A stretch of 63,946 nucleotides of DNA, counting the filler, from Folioceros fuciformis (Eukaryota), in the NCBI GenBank assembly GCA_049999805.1. It is 8 parts of 8 records of this genome, joined end to end, with 100 filler letters (N's around TTAATTAATTAA, not from the genome) between each part and the next. Parts side by side here need not be neighbours in the genome. Positions count along the whole stretch, not along the records: positions 22,369 to 32,928 come from JBNGIO010003389.1; 7 more parts are not named here. The stretch is one strand, 5' to 3'. Shown here piece by piece: positions 16,138 to 38,429 of the stretch. Made by a program: the position numbers and the translations under genes. Below the pieces are notes generated by a model. It saw nothing but the letters and a program-made list of their open reading frames with translations, searched no databases and had not been told where the DNA came from. Position 1 is the first letter of the stretch; every line of letters begins with the position of its first letter.

Positions 16138-16650
16138 GGCTGCCTTTAGGTACGATCGCATCAGGGGCAGAATCAGCCAAATTGACCAGTTTCCAAAAGT
16201 GGATTTCGGTGAGGAGCACCTGGACGGGCAGTTCCCTTTCGCCCGGCGCTCTCTCTTTCTCAGTCAAAGGAGGAGAGCCCCACAACCCGCAATCAAGAGT
16301 CAAGGCGCTCGGGGTGAAGGCAGCCGTGCGAAAGGTAGGCAGTGCTTGCATCTCTTATGTTCTATGCACGCCATTGTGTGTACCGAGCTTCTTCTGACAA
16401 AGGTCTGGATTCCTGTGCACCTCCTGAAACAGATAGGCTTTTATTGAGCACGTTACAGAGCCTGTGAGGGCACGGCGCACTGGCTCTTCCAGGATCCCCA
16501 GAGAGATGGTGGCGGGTCGTGCCTAAAATGGCAGATCTTCTTACCAGGAGGAGCATCTTGTCCGAGGTCCCGCACCCCGGGAAAGGAAGCATCTATAAGG
16601 CACGGCCTTGCCCACCACTTTGCCGGCTGCAGTTGGCTTGCAGGGGAATC

Positions 16651-17925
16651 ATGGCGTCCGCAGCAGCAGGGAACAACGGTGTCGGTACTGCAGTGGCCAT
16701 TGAGAAGGAAGGCGCAGCTGGGGCCGCGGGAGCGGCCGCAGCCCAGCAGCCGCTGATTGCCAAGCGGCTGGAGCAGTTCAAGACCACCATCTTCACCACG
16801 ATGAGCTTGCTTGCGCTGAAGCACAAGGCTGTGAATCTGGGGCAGGGCTTCCCCAACTTCGACGGCCCACAATTCGTAAAGGATGCGGCGGTACAGGCGG
16901 TCCTGGACGGCAGCAAGAACCAGTATGCAAGAGGGTTCGGGGTGCCAGAGCTCAACGCTGCTGTGGCCAGGAGCTTCTTCAAGGAGTCGGGGATCAAAGT
17001 GGATCCGGACAAGGAGGTGACCATCACGTCCGGGTGCACGGAAGCCATAGCTGCCAGCATGTTGGGTCTCATCAACCCGGGCGACGAGGTGGTTCTATTT
17101 GCGCCCTTCTACGACTCGTACCAGGCCACGCTGTCCATGGCAGGGGCCAAAGTGAAGGCGGTCACTCTGCGGCCTCCCGACTTCGCTGTTCCTGTGGAGG
17201 AGCTCCGGCAAGCGGTGTCCTCCAACACCCGGGCTATTTTAGTGAACACACCTCACAACCCAACAGGGAAGGTGTTCTCACGGGAGGAGCTGGAGCTGAT
17301 CGCCGACCTCTGCATCCAGCACGACGTCTTGGCTTTCACGGATGAGGTGTACAACAAGCTGGTGTTCAGCGGAGAGCATGTGTCCCTGGCGTCCATCAAA
17401 GGCATGTACGACAGGACAGTGACCATGAATTCTTTGGGCAAGACCTTCTCCCTCACAGGCTGGAAAGTGGGTTGGGCTGTCGCACCTCCCCGGCTCACAT
17501 GGGGGATTCGTCAAGCTCATGCTTTCCTCACCTTCACCACTCCCACCCCTTTGCAGTATGGAGCTGTGGCAGCCCTCAACGCCCCGGATTCTTACTACCA
17601 GGAGTTGGTGGCTGACTACAGGGCCAAGAAGGACATACTTGTCCAGGGCCTGAAGAGTGTTGGCTTCAAGGTTTATGAGCCTCAGGGCACCTACTTCGTC
17701 ATGGTCGATCACACTCCCTTCGGGTTTGAGTCCGACGTTGCCTTTGCCCAGTACTTGATAGAAGAAGTCGGCGTTGCAGCCATACCCCCCAGCGTCTTCT
17801 ACCTTCACCCTGAAGATGGCAAGAATTTGTTGAGATTTGCTTTCTGCAAGGATGAAGCTACCCTTAGAACAGGGATTGAAAGGCTTAAGGCTAAACTTAA
17901 GATTGCACCGCCCTCTTATTCGTAA
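16651..17925 (+). CDS. PLP-dependent class I/II aminotransferase (kynurenine/glutamine transaminase K, DapC-like), intronless
   Basis: Motifs NLGQGFPNFDGP, NTPHNPTGK, DEVY, SLGKTFSLTGWKVGW (PLP lysine) and RFAFCK. An alternative in-frame ATG lies at 16528, but the TATA-like tataag near 16594 favours 16651. Confidence 0.93.
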   Translation: MASAAAGNNGVGTAVAIEKEGAAGAAGAAAAQQPLIAKRLEQFKTTIFTTMSLLALKHKAVNLGQGFPNFDGPQFVKDAAVQAVLDGSKNQYARGFGVPELNAAVARSFFKESGIKVDPDKEVTITSGCTEAIAASMLGLINPGDEVVLFAPFYDSYQATLSMAGAKVKAVTLRPPDFAVPVEELRQAVSSNTRAILVNTPHNPTGKVFSREELELIADLCIQHDVLAFTDEVYNKLVFSGEHVSLASIKGMYDRTVTMNSLGKTFSLTGWKVGWAVAPPRLTWGIRQAHAFLTFTTPTPLQYGAVAALNAPDSYYQELVADYRAKKDILVQGLKSVGFKVYEPQGTYFVMVDHTPFGFESDVAFAQYLIEEVGVAAIPPSVFYLHPEDGKNLLRFAFCKDEATLRTGIERLKAKLKIAPPSYS

Positions 17926-22915: not shown

Positions 22916-23244
22916 CGCACCTGAGTTTCGTCGTGTTCTCAACAGTCAGNNNNNNNNNNNNNNNNNNNNNNNNNNNNNNNNNNNNNNNNNNNNNNNNNNN
23001 NNNNNNNNNNNNNNNNNNNNNNNNNNNNNNNNNNNNNNNNNNNNNNNNNGGCCTCCTCTCACTGACCATTCGCCTTTCATATAAATATGCCAGTGAAAGA
23101 GCAAGGCGAAACCGGAGTGTGAAGAACCGCAAAATAGCGAAGACCCAATGAATCAAAGCCTAAATGCTGACGGGATGATTTCCTGGAGCTGGCCGTAGTG
23201 CCCAGTGGACCCTGCAGCGAGGGTCACAATCCTGACTTAGTATC

Positions 23245-25479
23245 GTGGAAGAGTTTGTTTCTCGAGAGGTGCGGTTACAGGAGGAGACGGTTCATGTGAT
23301 GCACCTCCTTGGTCACCCGGCTGTGGTACTTCCTGCTGCGACGTACGGGTATCTGCTGCAAGGATGTTGGAGGATGAAGGTCCTGGATGAAGGATGTGGA
23401 GTTCATACCCAAATCGTTGAGGCTGGGCTGCTGGAGTACAGCAGCTATGTGGGTGATTCCATCGTCAGCAGGCTTGTGGGCTGCGGAAGTCTGCAGGGTG
23501 CCCTCAAGGGTATTGGCAGAGTGCCACAACGCAGCACCTTCACATGGACATCCAATATCTCAGGGCTGGTCAAAAATGGGCAGAATGGAGAGGCTTTGAA
23601 ACGCTACCACCAGATGGTGGCCGAGGGTGTTAATCCGGACCAGTACACATATGTGAGTGTGCTTCGAGCCTGTAGCGGTCTGGCAGATCTGCAGGAGGGC
23701 AAGAGGGTTCATTTCAGAGTGGTTCAGGACCAGTGTGAGCTGCAGTTGTTCGTGGCAACGGCTCTGGTCGACATGTATGCCAAATGTGGGAGCATGGTGG
23801 ATGCACAGCAACTGTTTGACAGGGTGCCCCATCGGAATGTGGTGGTATGGAGTGCTATGATTTCTGGCTACGCACAGCAAGGGCAGGGGGCGAAAGCTTT
23901 GCAGCTTTTTGATCACATGCGAAGGGAGGGTGTGAGACTAGATGATCGGGCTTTCATCAGTGCTTTGAAAGCTTGTGGAAGCCTGTCTGCTGCAGAAGAG
24001 GCTAGAACTTGTGATGGACGACAATTTAAGCTGGACTCTCTGAGAAAGGTCAGGGAAATCCATGCTGATATTGTGAGAGAGGGGTTTGGAGCAAGTGTGT
24101 TTTTGGGAACCACGTTGGTTGATACATATGCCAAATCTGGAAGCATGTTTGATGCGCAGAGGGTTTTCGACAACCTGCACAACCGCAACGTAGTGTCTTG
24201 GAGTGCATTGATCGCTGGATATGCGCAGGACGAACAAGGTGAGGCGGCTGTGCAACGGTACCACCAGATGAAAGGAGACGATGTGGAGCCAAATACGTGG
24301 ACGTTTGTCAGTGTACTGAAAGCTTGCGGCAGCCTTGCAGCAGGGGAGGGCTCCGTTTTCGTCAAGGGACAACTGCTGAAAGTGCAAGCCCTCGAGATGG
24401 GTCATGCCATCCACGCTGACGTTGTAAGAAAAGGGTGCGAATCAGATGTGTTTGTCGGAACAGCTCTTGTTGACATGTATTCAAAGTGTGGGAGCATGGT
24501 GGATGCAGAGCAGATCTTCCACAAGCTATGTCAGCGGGATGTTGTTTGTTGGAATGCAATGATGGCTGGATACGCTCATCAAGAACGTGGCGAAGAGGCG
24601 ATGCAATTGTATGCTCAAATGCAGGAAGCTGGTGTGATGCCAACGTCTGCCACCTTTATCTCTCTTCTCAAAGCATGCAGCAATATAGGGGCTCTGAACA
24701 TGTGTACGCGGGTGTACCATGATGTACTAAACATCGGAACGGATCTGAACTCAGTATCTACCTCTCTCATTCATGCATTTGGAAAATGTGGGTGCATGGA
24801 TTCTGCTCGGATTGTCTTTGATAGCTTACCAAGGCAGGATGTGCTGCAGTGGAGTGCATTGATAGCAGGGTATGCTCGTCAGGGGGAGCACAAAATGAGC
24901 TTGAATCTGTTGAAAGAAATGCGGCAGGCCGGCATCAATCCCAATGGAGTCACATTTGTATCTATTCTTACTGCGTGCGGTCATGCTGGCTTGGTGGACG
25001 ATGGCGTCAAGTGCTTCGATTGCATGACAGGGAGATACGGGATCGCCCCAACTATTCAGCATTATGCTAGCCTGCTTGATATGCTTGCTCGTGCGGGACG
25101 CTTTGATGAGGTGCAGGACATTCTTTCGAGGATGCCTATCCAGCCCAACCTAGCCATATGGTTGTGTCTGCTGGGTGCCTGCCGAAAGTTCAGGAACGTG
25201 CAACTTGGAAGAAAAGCGTTCGATTCTGCTGTTACGCTAGAACCCAAACACAGCACTTCCTATATAGTCATGTCGAACATTTATGCCGAGGCAGATTTGT
25301 GGAAGGAGGCCAGGAAGGTAGACGAAATGAGGGTCAGGGCAGGTGCTTGGAAACAGCCGGGGAAGAGCTGGGTTGAACTTGGGGGCCAAGTACATGCGTT
25401 TGTGGTACATGACAGAAACCACGAGCAAAAGGATCTGGTGTACTCTAAATTGAGAGAGTTAAGGCGAGCAATGTCGTGA
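23245..25479 (+). CDS. PLS-class pentatricopeptide repeat protein, E1-E2-E+ (no DYW deaminase), intronless
   Basis: Repeated ALVDMYAKCGS..DA...FD....RNVV.W..MI.GY triplets, E motifs (HYASLLDMLARAG; YIVMSNIYA) and the PG box KQPGKSWVE. It stops before any HxE/CxxC. The first in-frame ATG is at 23299. Confidence 0.95.
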   Translation: MEEFVSREVRLQEETVHVMHLLGHPAVVLPAATYGYLLQGCWRMKVLDEGCGVHTQIVEAGLLEYSSYVGDSIVSRLVGCGSLQGALKGIGRVPQRSTFTWTSNISGLVKNGQNGEALKRYHQMVAEGVNPDQYTYVSVLRACSGLADLQEGKRVHFRVVQDQCELQLFVATALVDMYAKCGSMVDAQQLFDRVPHRNVVVWSAMISGYAQQGQGAKALQLFDHMRREGVRLDDRAFISALKACGSLSAAEEARTCDGRQFKLDSLRKVREIHADIVREGFGASVFLGTTLVDTYAKSGSMFDAQRVFDNLHNRNVVSWSALIAGYAQDEQGEAAVQRYHQMKGDDVEPNTWTFVSVLKACGSLAAGEGSVFVKGQLLKVQALEMGHAIHADVVRKGCESDVFVGTALVDMYSKCGSMVDAEQIFHKLCQRDVVCWNAMMAGYAHQERGEEAMQLYAQMQEAGVMPTSATFISLLKACSNIGALNMCTRVYHDVLNIGTDLNSVSTSLIHAFGKCGCMDSARIVFDSLPRQDVLQWSALIAGYARQGEHKMSLNLLKEMRQAGINPNGVTFVSILTACGHAGLVDDGVKCFDCMTGRYGIAPTIQHYASLLDMLARAGRFDEVQDILSRMPIQPNLAIWLCLLGACRKFRNVQLGRKAFDSAVTLEPKHSTSYIVMSNIYAEADLWKEARKVDEMRVRAGAWKQPGKSWVELGGQVHAFVVHDRNHEQKDLVYSKLRELRRAMS

Positions 25480-25721
25480 TATTGCTAGGATAAAGAAACT
25501 TTCAGTGCTAGATTCACGGGCGACATGGTATCCATCATGTAGTGCCGGGCTGCGATTCTCGGCCGACAACATTGAAAAAAAGATGCAGCTTGTCCGGAGA
25601 AAGACAGCAGAAAAAAAGCCACTTGTTTCCAGACCATCTTCCGAAGTTCATGTAGACGATCTAGTGGCTCCCGGCATTGTCAGAAGAGCCACCCAGTTGA
25701 TCTTCATGATAGTCCAGTCGA

Positions 25722-27848
25722 CTACGTTCCCTGCAAATAGGGGTGCAGGGGTGGAGGCTGGTATCGCTTTGACAAGCCTAGCACTCGCCGATGTGTTGCA
25801 TTCGGAAACTGCAAGGGGGGACCTGTTCCTGTGTGTGGTAAGCAGGTTAGTATCACACATCGTTTCTGATGGTGCTTGTGCTGTTTCTGTTGGCTGAACG
25901 AGTAACCACAAATCCATGGGGGGTAGGGAGATGGGAGGAGATATCACCTGATGCTGCGGCCAGAGCATTTGTCTTGGAGGGTGTTGAGATGTGGTTCAGA
26001 GGCTTCAGGGGCAGCCGTGCAGGTTGCAAACCTGAAGAAGCAACAAACCCATTACCGTGGAAAGAAAGGACAAAACAAGGTTTCGTATCGCCCAGAAGCA
26101 GCACGACGGCATGCATTCTGGGCTGTTGCTGTCAAGAGCTCTTACCTGAAGTTGTTGTGGTGGCTCTTTGGTTCCCAGGTTTGGCCCAGGTGACTTTCGC
26201 AGCAGCGTCTACCTGCTTGAGTACAACGAAAACGTGGTCAGAGGAAAGAAAAAGCAAGAGTTTCAAGCTGCTCGGTTGGTTGGCAGGTTGGGAGGTTTAC
26301 AATCCCCTGGGAGGGACTTGCAGGTTCAATCGCTTTGGCTGCTGGCCTTGTCTTGGTGTTCGACATTGGCATCTTCGACACTTTCGGAGAGGCGTCTTTT
26401 GTACATGTTGGCGTTTTCGGCGGTGCCTGCAAGTTGGAGGTAAGAAGAAGGCAAGCTCAGAGAAACTTGAACCTGGGATAGACATAATCATTCACCCACT
26501 TTACCCTATTAGAGCGAGCTCGTTTGATCACGTCGGATCTGATGGACGCCGGATGTGTAGTCCTTTTCTTCTTAACTCCACCCTTGCCCATATCGGAATC
26601 ATCCGAATCGGGCTCAAATAGGTCATCCTCGTCTTCGTCGCTTTCACTTTCCTCATCAGCCGACCATTCGTCATCTTTCTTCCCCCGGGCATTCATTTCC
26701 GTGCCTGGGCCCTGCAGGACATTCTTTGTCAGTCACCTGTATGATAGGACGGAGGTTAGATGTCCACTACTCCAGTGATGATAAGAAACAATAACCTTGA
26801 CATCAGCGGTCGGTTTTCTTGTCGCCTGGTCATCCTCGCTAGAGACTGCTGCGTCTTCCTCCTCGTCATCCTTCCGGTTGTCCGTTCTTTGGCCACCAGC
26901 GTTGACGGAACTCAACTGGCGTAGAGGGTGACCGCCGTCGTCCCCAATCTCGGAATCTGGAGATGCTCTACGCACAGGAAGTTCCTCTGCAGTGACTGTA
27001 GCCTGACGCTGATCCTCTTGCTCCTATACCGGACAAATGATGCACTTCAGTGCCGTATCCCTTCCTCGAGAAATCACTGCTACAGAACGAGGCGAACTGT
27101 GCATACCTGAGAAGCGGGCACCTCCGTATCTGCCTGCCCACACTGCCCCGAGGAACTGCTCTCCACCGATAACGCATCGTTTGGAGCTTCAAAAGCAACA
27201 GCCTCCGGAGTTTGATGCAACCTTTGAAGAATCTGGCTAGCTTCTCTGGCCTCAACATCGCATTCTCGGAACGTGACACGAGTGCCCCTATCCGCTCCCC
27301 GGCTGTAGGTGTGCACAAACGCAGTGCTCAACGACTCGGAGATAGCCCTCTCCAGTTGCTTGGCTTCGGCCCGGTCCTGTACAAACAAGCCACATGACGT
27401 CAACCCCTGAACCTCCACACAAGATGCAGACACACTACACAACTGCAGGAGCAGAAATCTCCTCCAACCACCAGAATCCCTCTAGTTCAGATACACCACG
27501 TTGCCTCACTTCATCTCACGTCTCAAAAACTAGGCAAATGCACGGAGAGGCAGCAGAATGGAAGACCTTAGCATTGGCTCGCTCCTGCCAGACACAGACA
27601 CCAAGCAGCACATAGGCATCAAGAGCAGACCTCCAACCGTCTCTCCCAAAACCCACAAAACACCCAGCAGCCTTTTCCCGAAATCTCCTCACCTGAGCTC
27701 TGGAAGACCGCTTCAGGCTGAGACTACGCTTGGGTCGCGCCTGCTCCAAGGCCTGCGGAGCTTCCCTGGCCACCTCGTCCTCGTCGGACGGCGCGTCCCT
27801 GTAAGACACAGAACTGCGCGCCAGCCGAAGCGGCCTCCCTGACGCCAT
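25722..27848 (-). CDS. RAD51AP1-like intrinsically disordered protein, 8 exons, about 414 aa
   Basis: Exons 27848-27693, 27376-27107, 27023-26796, 26711-26505, 26426-26301, 26212-26146, 26031-25948 and 25828-25722 are all GT-AG and phase-consistent (1245 nt). The protein ends ...KVTWAKPG...HRRVLGLSKRYQPPPLHPYLQGT*. Confidence 0.65.
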
Positions 27849-28797
27849 GGCATTGCTATCCTACGGCATCGGAACTGCTTCTCCTGCCTGCCGGATTCCA
27901 CCTTCCTCCTGCCCCCCTCCCCCGACTATCTTCCGATAACGACCGGGAAACAGAAATCAACCGCCCCACCCATCTCGTCGCAGAATTCCTTCCCCTCTCA
28001 AAACAGCAAGCCCCTCGGGTCGTGACGTGACGTGATGTGTGGAGCAAAATCCACCTCGTCGTGTTTCTGGGCTTCCTCTAAGCACAGCACATTTGAAGTG
28101 CATGAAAAAGCGGGAAGAACGAGGGCTTGGGTCGGGCCGGGTCGGGTCGTCGCTGGATGGGAACAGAATCTCCGCTATCAGCTTAAAAACAAGCCTAACA
28201 CCGCGCCTCCGCTTCTACTCATCTCGCGGTCCCGTTCTATTTTATCTACGTGTAGTTTTCATTCAGAATTAAAAGATGAGAAGAAACTTAATTTACCGCA
28301 TTGCTATCTGATCATTCATCATTATAAGGATGTAATTTATTTTTTCATAAAAAGAATAAATTTTTAGCTGTTTAATGTTCGAAGGGGCTAGTACGTTTTG
28401 TTTTGATCTTTGTCTTAGGGTTATTCTTTGTTTAGTAGATAAGATTTTCTATCTATTTTTAAATAAATAAATAAATAAATAAATAATGATTAACAGAATA
28501 ATTTTATGTTTCATGATGTGAGATTTTTTAATTTTGCAAAATCTCAACCACCTTAAAAGAATAAGGAACTCTATGGCATATATCATACACATATGTATTT
28601 TTATGGTATCTTATTCAAGCATATGAGATGATCTCTTATAGTACCTAACTAATCTATAGTGGATGATAATATTTATCATTCAAGCAAAACAAGCATGTAT
28701 ATTATCGTAAAAGGTTTTTTTCTATGCTTATATATGTAGAGAACTACACCCTTGTTTCTCATGCATTCAGTGGAGTGTCCTATACTTAGTGATTTTG

Positions 28798-36844: not shown

Positions 36845-37265
36845 TTCCTCAATAGTAGATCTAAATCACACCTTGCTAGTAATGGAAGAAACTAATAGAT
36901 ATATATAAAAGAACTAGTTAAAGTTTATTATTATATTACGATAGTGATGCCAAATACTACAAAGGTCAAAATCTTCAGTTCAGGTCACTTGTTAAGCTAT
37001 TTAGGGTGCCGTGAGGGAAATCTGTCTAACTTAAGCCACGGATGTGTGTCCAGACGCCTTCAACTGGGCTCCCGGTTCTGGAAACCGGTACGTGGTGAGA
37101 GTAAACCGGCATGTGTAGAGCACGCATACGCTTCGGCCACGGCCTCCAACACACTTCCTTTCGTGGCACAGGGGGCTCCATGTGCGATGGCTTTTTCTTT
37201 GGGTGTGGGACGAAAGATTGGTGGCTGCAGGGTCGCTCCCTGTGTGCCGCTGTGAGGAAGGTGCA

Positions 37266-38429
37266 ATGGAATCCAGCACGTCTGACGAAGTTCGGGAAGA
37301 CTGCGTGCTATTTCTGCTGCTGAAGGCCGATCCGAAGCAGCCTTCCCTCGAGAGGAGCGCGGAAATGGATCCAAATGTATGGAGCCAACTTCCCGACAAT
37401 TTGTTGGAGGAGGTGGTAAGACGTCTGCAGACCCCATCCCATTTCAGATTTCGCGCAGTCTCCAAAGCGTGGGCAGCACTGCTCTCTTCTCCCGAGTTTC
37501 TGCGCCGCACCACAGCAGGCTGCCATCCGCCCCGCAGCCTGTCCATTTGTGGATCTATAGTGAGCCTGTCTAAGGATGTGGTGAGACCTGGGAACGTTCG
37601 CAAACTCCGGCTCCCTTACTCTCCCAATCTTTACCCTTGCTGTACAGGGGGAGGACTCATTTGCTTCCGCAGTACGTCTTCCAGTTTCCAGCTGCATGTT
37701 TGCAATCCTCTAATAAGGACGTGGAGGCAACTCCCAGAGTATGAAACCCCTTATCACTGTGTCACCAGGACCACTTTGGTTTACAACAGGGATCTCAAGA
37801 CATACAAGATTCAGGTCACTTGTCGAAAGGAAGGAGCACATGAAAATGATTGGGCCATTTGCATCTACGACTCTAGCCAAGATTCTTGGAAGACAGTGCC
37901 ATTGCAACCATGCCGGGGCATGGAGTTCGCCCACGTATTCTGCAACGGGATGATTTATTGTATTGACTCTCAGTTGATGTTGTGGTCCCATGACATAACC
38001 GAGGGGGTTTGGAGGCAACTCTCAGTTCAGCGGCCAGCCAATGTGTTTGAAAGGCATATCTCTCTTGAGGAGCACTGCGGTTCTCTCTTGCTGGTTGGCT
38101 TTCTGAGCAACTCCCTCACCAGCTATGCAATATGGAAGTTGGAGGAAAGTCAAGGGGCTTGGATTGAGGTGGCTGTGCTACACAAAGAGCAAATGATGGA
38201 CCTCTTCGTTCCTTCTGCTGAGCGTGAACAATACTGGAACTCCATATCACTGGGGGATTGCTTTTTCCTGCATATTTGGATCAGTCTCCCCAGAAGTCGC
38301 AGCAAGGGCATGTTAGTCTTCAACTTTGAGCAAAGCTTATGGCTGGCTTGGGCGATTGATTTCGGAGAAAAGAGTACGAGCCTCCGCTTCTTTTACCCTT
38401 GCGATCCGAGGCTGGACCAAGTTCCATGA
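37266..38429 (+). CDS. F-box/kelch-type protein, intronless
   Basis: MDPNVWSQLPDNLLEEVVRRL...FRFRAVSKAW, GGLICF, VCNPLIRTWRQLP, IYDS..DSW and a terminal DPRLD. Confidence 0.9.
   Translation: MESSTSDEVREDCVLFLLLKADPKQPSLERSAEMDPNVWSQLPDNLLEEVVRRLQTPSHFRFRAVSKAWAALLSSPEFLRRTTAGCHPPRSLSICGSIVSLSKDVVRPGNVRKLRLPYSPNLYPCCTGGGLICFRSTSSSFQLHVCNPLIRTWRQLPEYETPYHCVTRTTLVYNRDLKTYKIQVTCRKEGAHENDWAICIYDSSQDSWKTVPLQPCRGMEFAHVFCNGMIYCIDSQLMLWSHDITEGVWRQLSVQRPANVFERHISLEEHCGSLLLVGFLSNSLTSYAIWKLEESQGAWIEVAVLHKEQMMDLFVPSAEREQYWNSISLGDCFFLHIWISLPRSRSKGMLVFNFEQSLWLAWAIDFGEKSTSLRFFYPCDPRLDQVP

Follow-up and report, generated by a model that had tools for sequence, protein, structure and literature searches.

The window analysed here is a stretch of 63,946 nucleotides, filler included, joined from eight parts of the genome of Folioceros fuciformis, and all coordinates given below count along its length. 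Its minus strand carries, between positions 27848 and 25722, eight exons that join at GT..AG sites into a single open frame of 1245 nucleotides encoding 414 amino acids (coding span 25722..27848, from the ATG at 27848-27846 to the stop codon at 25724-25722). This is a real, spliced, protein-coding gene, and its seven exon joints are present in contigs from a public sequencing run. Judged by alignment, its predicted product is one of a conserved group of land-plant proteins, as yet without a name, that occurs in mosses, ferns and a conifer as well as in this plant, and its short C-terminal tail points to a probable role as a RAD51 accessory factor of the type represented in animals by RAD51AP1.

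The preliminary description of the locus had proposed eight exons, seven canonical, phase-consistent introns and a product of about 414 residues, all of which the spliced model reproduces. The introns (GT..AG in 7/7) measure 316, 83, 84, 78, 88, 114 and 119 nucleotides, exons 2 to 8 start in phases 0, 0, 0, 0, 0, 1 and 1, and an in-frame stop is located just upstream of the ATG. Exon 1 (27693..27848; residues 1-52) aligns with the N-termini of fern and moss homologues. It is followed, also on the minus strand, by exon 2 (27107..27376; residues 53-142), exon 3 (26796..27023; residues 143-218, acidic and poorly conserved in the family alignment), exon 4 (26505..26711; residues 219-287, alignable to homologues), exon 5 (26301..26426; residues 288-329), exon 6 (26146..26212; residues 330-351 and the first base of codon 352) and exon 7 (25948..26031). 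The coding part of exon 8 (25725..25828), 34 residues read in frame from 25826, encodes the entire C-terminal motif. A 5' untranslated region of at least 53 nucleotides (27849..27901) is defined by a 915-nucleotide contig (record 5) that extends to 27901. Exon 8 had been reported as absent from the open reading frame (ORF) track. This fits its structure: the stop-to-stop frame spans 73 codons, and the exon is missing from the list because the 44 codons counted from the first ATG, GTG or TTG fall short of the default floor of 60 amino acids. The strings quoted for the protein are likewise all found in the order given, namely RPLRLARSSVSYRDAPSDEDE, QLERAISESL, an acidic tract followed by KKKR, KVTWAKPG and the terminal RRVLGLSKRYQPPPLHPYL.

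Every exon of the model has at least one joint in contigs from a public run, X1, whose type is presumed to be RNA, with a processed DNA copy as the formal alternative. The run contains 0.68 of the sampled words from 25600-27950. Its contigs over 25200-28300 show eight joints, seven of which coincide exactly with the predicted introns (CT..AC on the plus strand). Joints 1-3 are bridged by the single 915-nucleotide contig, with 207-228 letters on the shorter side, and are thus firm under a rule that asks a bridging record for at least 31 letters there. Joints 4-7 have just 22-28 letters on the shorter side (28 and 27 at the two ends of exon 5) and are more weakly supported. The seven junctions foreseen for this gene are therefore all exact in the contigs, three of them firmly bridged and four below the 31-letter rule. 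The last exon (25828-25722) is among those spliced in, its joint carrying 26 letters on the shorter side. Unspliced contigs occur beside the spliced forms at 25817-25954 (intron 7), 26008-26173 (intron 6) and 26183-26327 (intron 5), and the short joint sides are presumably an effect of word-based assembly where spliced and unspliced forms coexist. Retention of intron 7, if it occurs on the minus strand, would end the frame inside the intron (ORF 25853-26131) and yield a protein without the RAD51-type tail. Two further runs gave, over 25200-28300, one 38-letter piece lying on a neighbouring PPR gene (X2) and no piece (X3).

Exon 8 alone (34 residues), used as a phmmer query against 1,835,955,588 cluster-representative proteins, retrieved seven matches (E 1.9e-4 to 5e-4, at E<=0.001), each at the extreme C-terminus of a protein of 243-450 residues. 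They derive from Physcomitrium patens, Adiantum capillus-veneris, A. nelumboides, Ceratopteris richardii and Psilotum nudum, together with two further sequences. A profile search listed 14 proteins and added Ceratodon purpureus, a second A. nelumboides protein, two isoforms from Cryptomeria japonica, three N-terminal fragments and one further sequence; its reach was incomplete, the Physcomitrium protein being missed. Members of the family include LOC112287669 of Physcomitrium patens (XP_024386695.1, A9TQZ5), KAH7444114.1 of Ceratopteris, KAI5069124.1 of Adiantum, M758_2G151100 of Ceratodon and LOC131038465 of Cryptomeria. The homologues are annotated as 'hypothetical' or 'uncharacterized', and none has a precomputed Pfam domain.

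Homologues from at least seven named species match several exons colinearly. Proteins retrieved with nothing but exon 8 as the query can be aligned, in order, to exons 1, 2 and 4 as well, which supports the gene model independently. When the spliced product was compared with the family proteins, 10/10 were colinear over separate N- and C-terminal stretches, scoring 17.0-57.9 bits with fern-type sequences best (the E-values of this comparison refer to the 10-sequence file only), and fern sequences run continuously across the exon 4/5 junction. A moss-like orthologue on a metagenome genomic contig (L001, 1047-1609) has a last intron in phase 1 that splits a glycine codon; the phase-1 split lies 13 residues before HRRV in this orthologue and 12 in the window gene. 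The two Cryptomeria isoforms (P0025 and P0026; 385 and 308 residues) keep the tail (HQRVIGLSRRVRPPPLHPYL) on a divergent, serine-rich N-terminus. No angiosperm homologue stands among the seven phmmer or 14 profile matches, which is a hint only, both searches being of limited reach. A word-index search with exon 2 (90 residues, longer proteins) gave no match at E<=0.01 among 730 candidates, and one with the 41 residues around exon 8 gave no candidate with three common words, a method that also missed the known family. None of the protein collections searched yielded the window protein itself, and annotation may therefore have overlooked the gene. A PDB sequence search returned no match for exon 8 and none for the family profile (A1) at E<=10.

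The family proteins, of 370-450 residues, are intrinsically disordered. An AlphaFold2 (AF2) model of the nearest relative (P0021, from a 14-row alignment) has a mean predicted local distance difference test score (pLDDT) of 46 and a single helix at residues 56-81, and 64% of the residues of the window protein are disorder-promoting. The middle of the protein is of low complexity and can barely be aligned even between moss and fern. Conservation is concentrated in a few blocks: a basic-V.Y-acidic N-terminus, a KR.L.LKR string, an acidic tract followed by a basic cluster, and an invariant tail; a UIM-type helix is a further block, restricted to ferns and the window protein. The family alignment A1 contains 20 invariant columns, 17 of them within the C-terminal core.

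This core (HRRVLGLSKRYQPPPLHPYL; residues 392-411, 25734..25793 on the minus strand) is of the RAD51_interact type, as indicated by phmmer, the family alignment and the Pfam matches of the homologues. The peptide HRRV.GLSRR..PPPLHPYL is invariant in all seven phmmer homologues, and the window tail departs from it by a single K-for-R difference, with L at the variable position. Conservation of LGLS..R/K...PLHP, on which the preliminary description had staked its reading, is thus borne out, GLS[RK]R..PPPLHP being present in 10/10 full-length homologues from mosses, ferns and the conifer. In a scan against a library of 24,736 Pfam models, RAD51_interact (PF15696; gathering cutoff 25 bits) matched the C-terminus of all 14 homologue sequences scanned, at 9.2-20.9 bits with a best E of 4e-4; these sequences are not independent, representing about 10 distinct genes of one family. 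The model ranked first in nine of the 14 and second in the other five, with E<=0.1 in nine. The match always ended at model position 39/39, and in 12/14 it covered positions 24-39 without a gap. Kovalenko 2006 (PMC1636435) reports that R316A, L319Q, L328A and H329A in the 335-residue human RAD51AP1 significantly affected interaction with RAD51 in the yeast two-hybrid system. The three last-named positions place L, L and H at 16, 7 and 6 residues from the C-terminal end. L398, L407 and H408 of the 414 residues of the window protein lie at the same distances, as do their equivalents in 4/4 moss-type sequences; the fern and conifer sequences (6/6) have two extra terminal residues, placing L, L and H at 18, 9 and 8. 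Finally, a language-model feature search with the full-length Psilotum protein (P0005) returned chordate RAD51AP1/PF15696 as its top three named clusters (0.82-0.83), which we treat as a lead only.

The remaining elements of the protein are conserved to differing degrees. The N-terminal motif RPLRLARSSVSYRDAPSDEDE (residues 5-25, 27774..27836) consists of a basic stretch, V.Y and an acidic run; the pattern R..R.[AP][RHK]...[VC].Y occurs in nine of the 11 sequences tested, the window protein included, and R6, R9 and Y18 are nearly invariant in the plant family alignment (A3). The same motif in four moss homologues (residues 8-22 of P0004, P0008 and P0020, residues 14-28 of P0015) gives weak matches to Shugoshin_C (PF07557; E 0.054-2.5), below the cutoff. 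The UIM-like helix DRAEAKQLERAISESLS (residues 53-69, 27326..27376) shares an L..AI..S core with 5/5 fern sequences, and this core is absent from 4/4 moss-type sequences and the one conifer sequence. The string QLERAISESL, described beforehand as UIM-like, is present in a region that is helical in the AF2 model of P0021, but its UIM_2 score of 12.4 bits (E 0.21) stays below the cutoff of 21. No match to a UIM profile was listed for the five fern sequences in the Pfam scan. The acidic tract DDEWSADEESESDEDEDDLFEPDSDDSD (residues 231-258, 26592..26675) aligns with the fern D-WS.E acidic block, and the KKKR cluster (residues 265-268, 26562..26573) with K[RK]K[RG] at the same place in ferns. KKKR opens a basic C-terminal third, with a net charge of +18 over residues 271-414.

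Within this third lies KVTWAKPG (residues 335-342, 26174..26197), a candidate W..P recombinase- or DNA-binding motif. Its position varies among homologues. The WAKP string (residues 338-341) is out of line with W or FVPP in mosses, and ferns and the conifer lack an aromatic-x-x-P in its column. FVPP is found in 2/4 moss-type sequences and FVSP in one, with two mosses carrying KPFVPPGP about 20 residues upstream of the tail. Aromatic-x-x-P strings of ferns occur only in or just before the C-terminal core (F[KR]PP), a place taken in the window tail by YQPP, and the conifer has none. Equating KVTWAKPG with the KPKWVPP of RAD51AP1, as had been suggested, is therefore weak: the W..P core fits, but its placement does not.

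The gene lies in land-plant nuclear DNA of about 49% GC. Its nearest neighbour, which marks the DNA as that of a land plant, is an intron-less gene for a PPR protein of the PLS class that has an E motif (23236-25479, plus strand; 747 residues; PPR_2 E 1.5e-75, E_motif E 3.5e-14). This gene is convergent with the 8-exon gene, and the two appear to overlap at their 3' ends. A 2060-nucleotide contig of run X1 is continuous from the PPR gene to 25831 (region 25200-25831). The eighth joint in the contigs (25843->25925, cut +2, depth 7.9) corresponds to a GT..AG intron on the plus strand (25846..25926), a neighbouring feature separate from the protein. A spliced plus-strand transcript thus covers the 3' end of the gene in antisense orientation, over intron 7 and the first part of exon 8, and a 256-codon open frame (25851-26621, plus strand) lies antisense to exons 5-7. 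Long plus-strand frames elsewhere in the window encode a class I/II aminotransferase (16468-17925; E 1.6e-70) and an F-box protein with a KIB1-4-type beta-propeller (37119-38429). No recombination gene was seen among the neighbouring frames of the window.

We favour, as the probable explanation, that the 8-exon gene and its relatives encode a land-plant RAD51AP1-type RAD51 accessory factor, undescribed in the literature searched. In the order of their predicted elements, the plant proteins are laid out like animal RAD51AP1. The C-terminal peptide HRRV.GLS[RK]R..PPPLHPYL would dock on RAD51, and perhaps on DMC1, and the basic C-terminal third would bind DNA. Together, the two may help the RAD51 filament to capture duplex DNA and form D-loops, as animal RAD51AP1 does. 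The N-terminal basic-V.Y-acidic motif would recruit the protein to chromatin or regulate it there, a task in which the UIM-like helix of ferns and this plant could share. This interpretation, already put forward in the preliminary description, is supported in part: the conserved tail agrees with it, and it falls short in two respects, an above-cutoff Pfam match and the equation of the WAKP motif.

Several observations weigh against it. Firstly, no homologue sequence (0/14) scores at or above 25 bits with PF15696, and exon 8 of the window together with its 73-residue frame gives no match to this model at E<=10, so that the match to the Pfam RAD51-interacting profile, proposed beforehand as a check, is seen in the homologues, always below the cutoff, and not in the window exon. 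Secondly, the position of human R316 is taken by V395, with arginines at -1 and -2, leaving three of the four key residues in place. Thirdly, the feature score of the Psilotum protein is below 0.9, a range into which shuffled proteins fall in one case out of three; no more than six of the 10 best family-bearing language-model matches agree, and exon 8 alone produced no usable match in this search. More generally, no animal protein is among the seven phmmer or 14 profile matches. The WAKP motif is not positionally conserved among homologues, and the N-terminal motif, helix and acidic tract bear a presumed likeness to animal RAD51AP1 and NUCKS1. The tail is also short and proline-rich, a composition that makes convergence possible.

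The main rival builds on that last point. It holds that the family consists of plant-specific disordered nuclear proteins that do not descend from RAD51AP1, and that the tail arose by convergence as a short linear motif, with RAD51, at the same site, or some other conserved partner as its possible target. We consider this account unlikely, though it is the one to be taken most seriously. It would explain why every homologue score for PF15696 is below the cutoff and the window exon gives none, and it agrees with a low-complexity middle that scarcely aligns between moss and fern. It also has precedent: as stated in PMC1636435, RAD51AP2 shares with RAD51AP1 the C-terminal motif and only that, and residues 96-111 of RAD54 show 50% homology to its 16-residue core, so that the motif can sit on unrelated scaffolds. 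Against convergence, L, L and H stand exactly where the human residues do when counted from the C-terminal end, a short last exon holds the motif in both lineages, and the full-length features of the Psilotum protein point, as a lead, to RAD51AP1 clusters and not to RAD51AP2 or RAD54. The plant proteins may share ancestry with RAD51AP1, or just the same RAD51-binding motif.

A second rival, which we hold to be very unlikely, is that the resemblance arose by chance in a protein with no role in recombination, for instance a chromatin or ubiquitin-binding adaptor. Other weak Pfam matches in the family could be read in this way: Shugoshin_C on moss N-termini (E 0.054-2.5), UIM_2 on exon 2 of the window gene (E 0.21), YL1 on P0005 and P0003 (best E 0.0013) and Nop14 on P0005, P0007 and P0016 (best E 0.45). 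Chance is hard to reconcile with a single model out of 24,736 matching the same 16 residues in all 14 homologue sequences, or with a tail peptide that does not vary between mosses, ferns and a conifer and so implies that its partner is highly conserved. The notion that the locus is non-functional (frames concatenated by chance, a non-coding transcript or a pseudogene) might appeal to the failure to find the window protein in the collections searched and to the presumed RNA type of run X1, but it is exceedingly improbable, being already contradicted by a frame that stays open for 1245 nucleotides across seven exact GT..AG joints in contigs and by colinear multi-exon homologues in at least seven named species.

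A RAD51AP1-type factor in land plants would matter for how the animal protein is viewed. RAD51AP1 has been called vertebrate-specific, including in a 2025 review (PMC12535699). This label is already loose, since a sea-cucumber genome paper (PMC9700323) takes an echinoderm to have RAD51AP1. No description of a plant counterpart appears in the literature searched, among the matches listed; an Arabidopsis study (PMC10657422) cites RAD51AP1 only as mammalian background. If a conserved plant family carries this RAD51-binding tail, the factor would have arisen before plants and animals parted. Taken further, RAD51AP1 might be no invention of vertebrates or animals and might instead be a RAD51/DMC1 accessory factor of early eukaryotes. 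Bryophytes, ferns, this plant and gymnosperms would have retained it, whereas flowering plants would have lost it or changed it past recognition. We regard this scenario as speculative and rather improbable. Mosses integrate DNA through homologous recombination far more readily than angiosperms. If the factor were indeed ancient, its presence in Physcomitrium would be one reason for this difference. A plant family of this kind would also offer a new candidate for research on plant recombination and meiosis, and one that is directly testable in Physcomitrium patens, where knockouts and gene targeting are routine.

The closest known counterpart, under the RAD51AP1-type reading, is RAD51AP1 itself (PIR51; 335 residues in human), whose strongest homology with RAD51AP2, according to Kovalenko 2006, is in the C-terminal 16 residues. 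The homologue tails match PF15696 over its end positions 24-39, the L, L and H of the window protein stand at the offsets of L319, L328 and H329, and the proteins are similar in size. The same source describes a short last exon that encodes the whole motif in RAD51AP1 and RAD51AP2; the plant tail is likewise contained in a short last exon (exon 8, 34 residues), preceded by the same phase-1 intron in the window gene and in the metagenome orthologue. The lysine-cluster DNA-binding region of human RAD51AP1 (K231-K236 and K283/K284/K286/W287; PMC8233230) has a possible parallel in the KKKR cluster and basic, largely disordered third of the window protein, compared by charge. The plant proteins differ in their sub-cutoff PF15696 scores and in having the equivalent of R316 out of register. 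They also differ in that WVPP is missing: WAKP stands elsewhere in the window protein, FVPP is found in two mosses, and the ferns carry F[KR]PP within the core. The domain map in the review PMC12535699 (a helix bundle and zinc fingers) conflicts with the primary papers and was not used.

Comparison with the other animal proteins narrows the likeness to particular parts. RAD51AP2 likewise ends in this RAD51-interacting motif, again encoded by a short last exon, but it is described as a meiosis-specific protein of 1159 residues as opposed to the 370-450 of the plant proteins. NUCKS1, a RAD51AP1 paralogue with 28% identity, resembles the plant proteins as an acidic and basic chromatin protein; according to PMC4787752, however, no vertebrate examined has a NUCKS1 with the C-terminal RAD51-interacting domain, and this tail is the best-conserved part of the plant family. 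A different kind of similarity is offered by the FxPP P-motifs of BRCA2 (PhePP, TR2), FIGNL1 and RAD51AP1, which bind a site on DMC1 and RAD51; the P-motif of RAD51AP1 is printed as a DMC1-binding WVPP peptide (PMC11229353), and W287 of the human protein is also a DNA-binding residue (PMC8233230). Comparable aromatic-x-P-P strings stand by basic residues in the plant proteins (KPFVPPGP in mosses, RRF[KR]PPP in ferns and KRYQPPP in the window protein, which also has TWAKP). This likeness is one of sequence alone, and the strings change position with lineage and are wanting in the conifer. The unnamed plant proteins are members of the family of the window protein, which shares with them, colinearly, the N-terminal motif, the KR.L.LKR string, the acidic tract and the invariant C-terminus.

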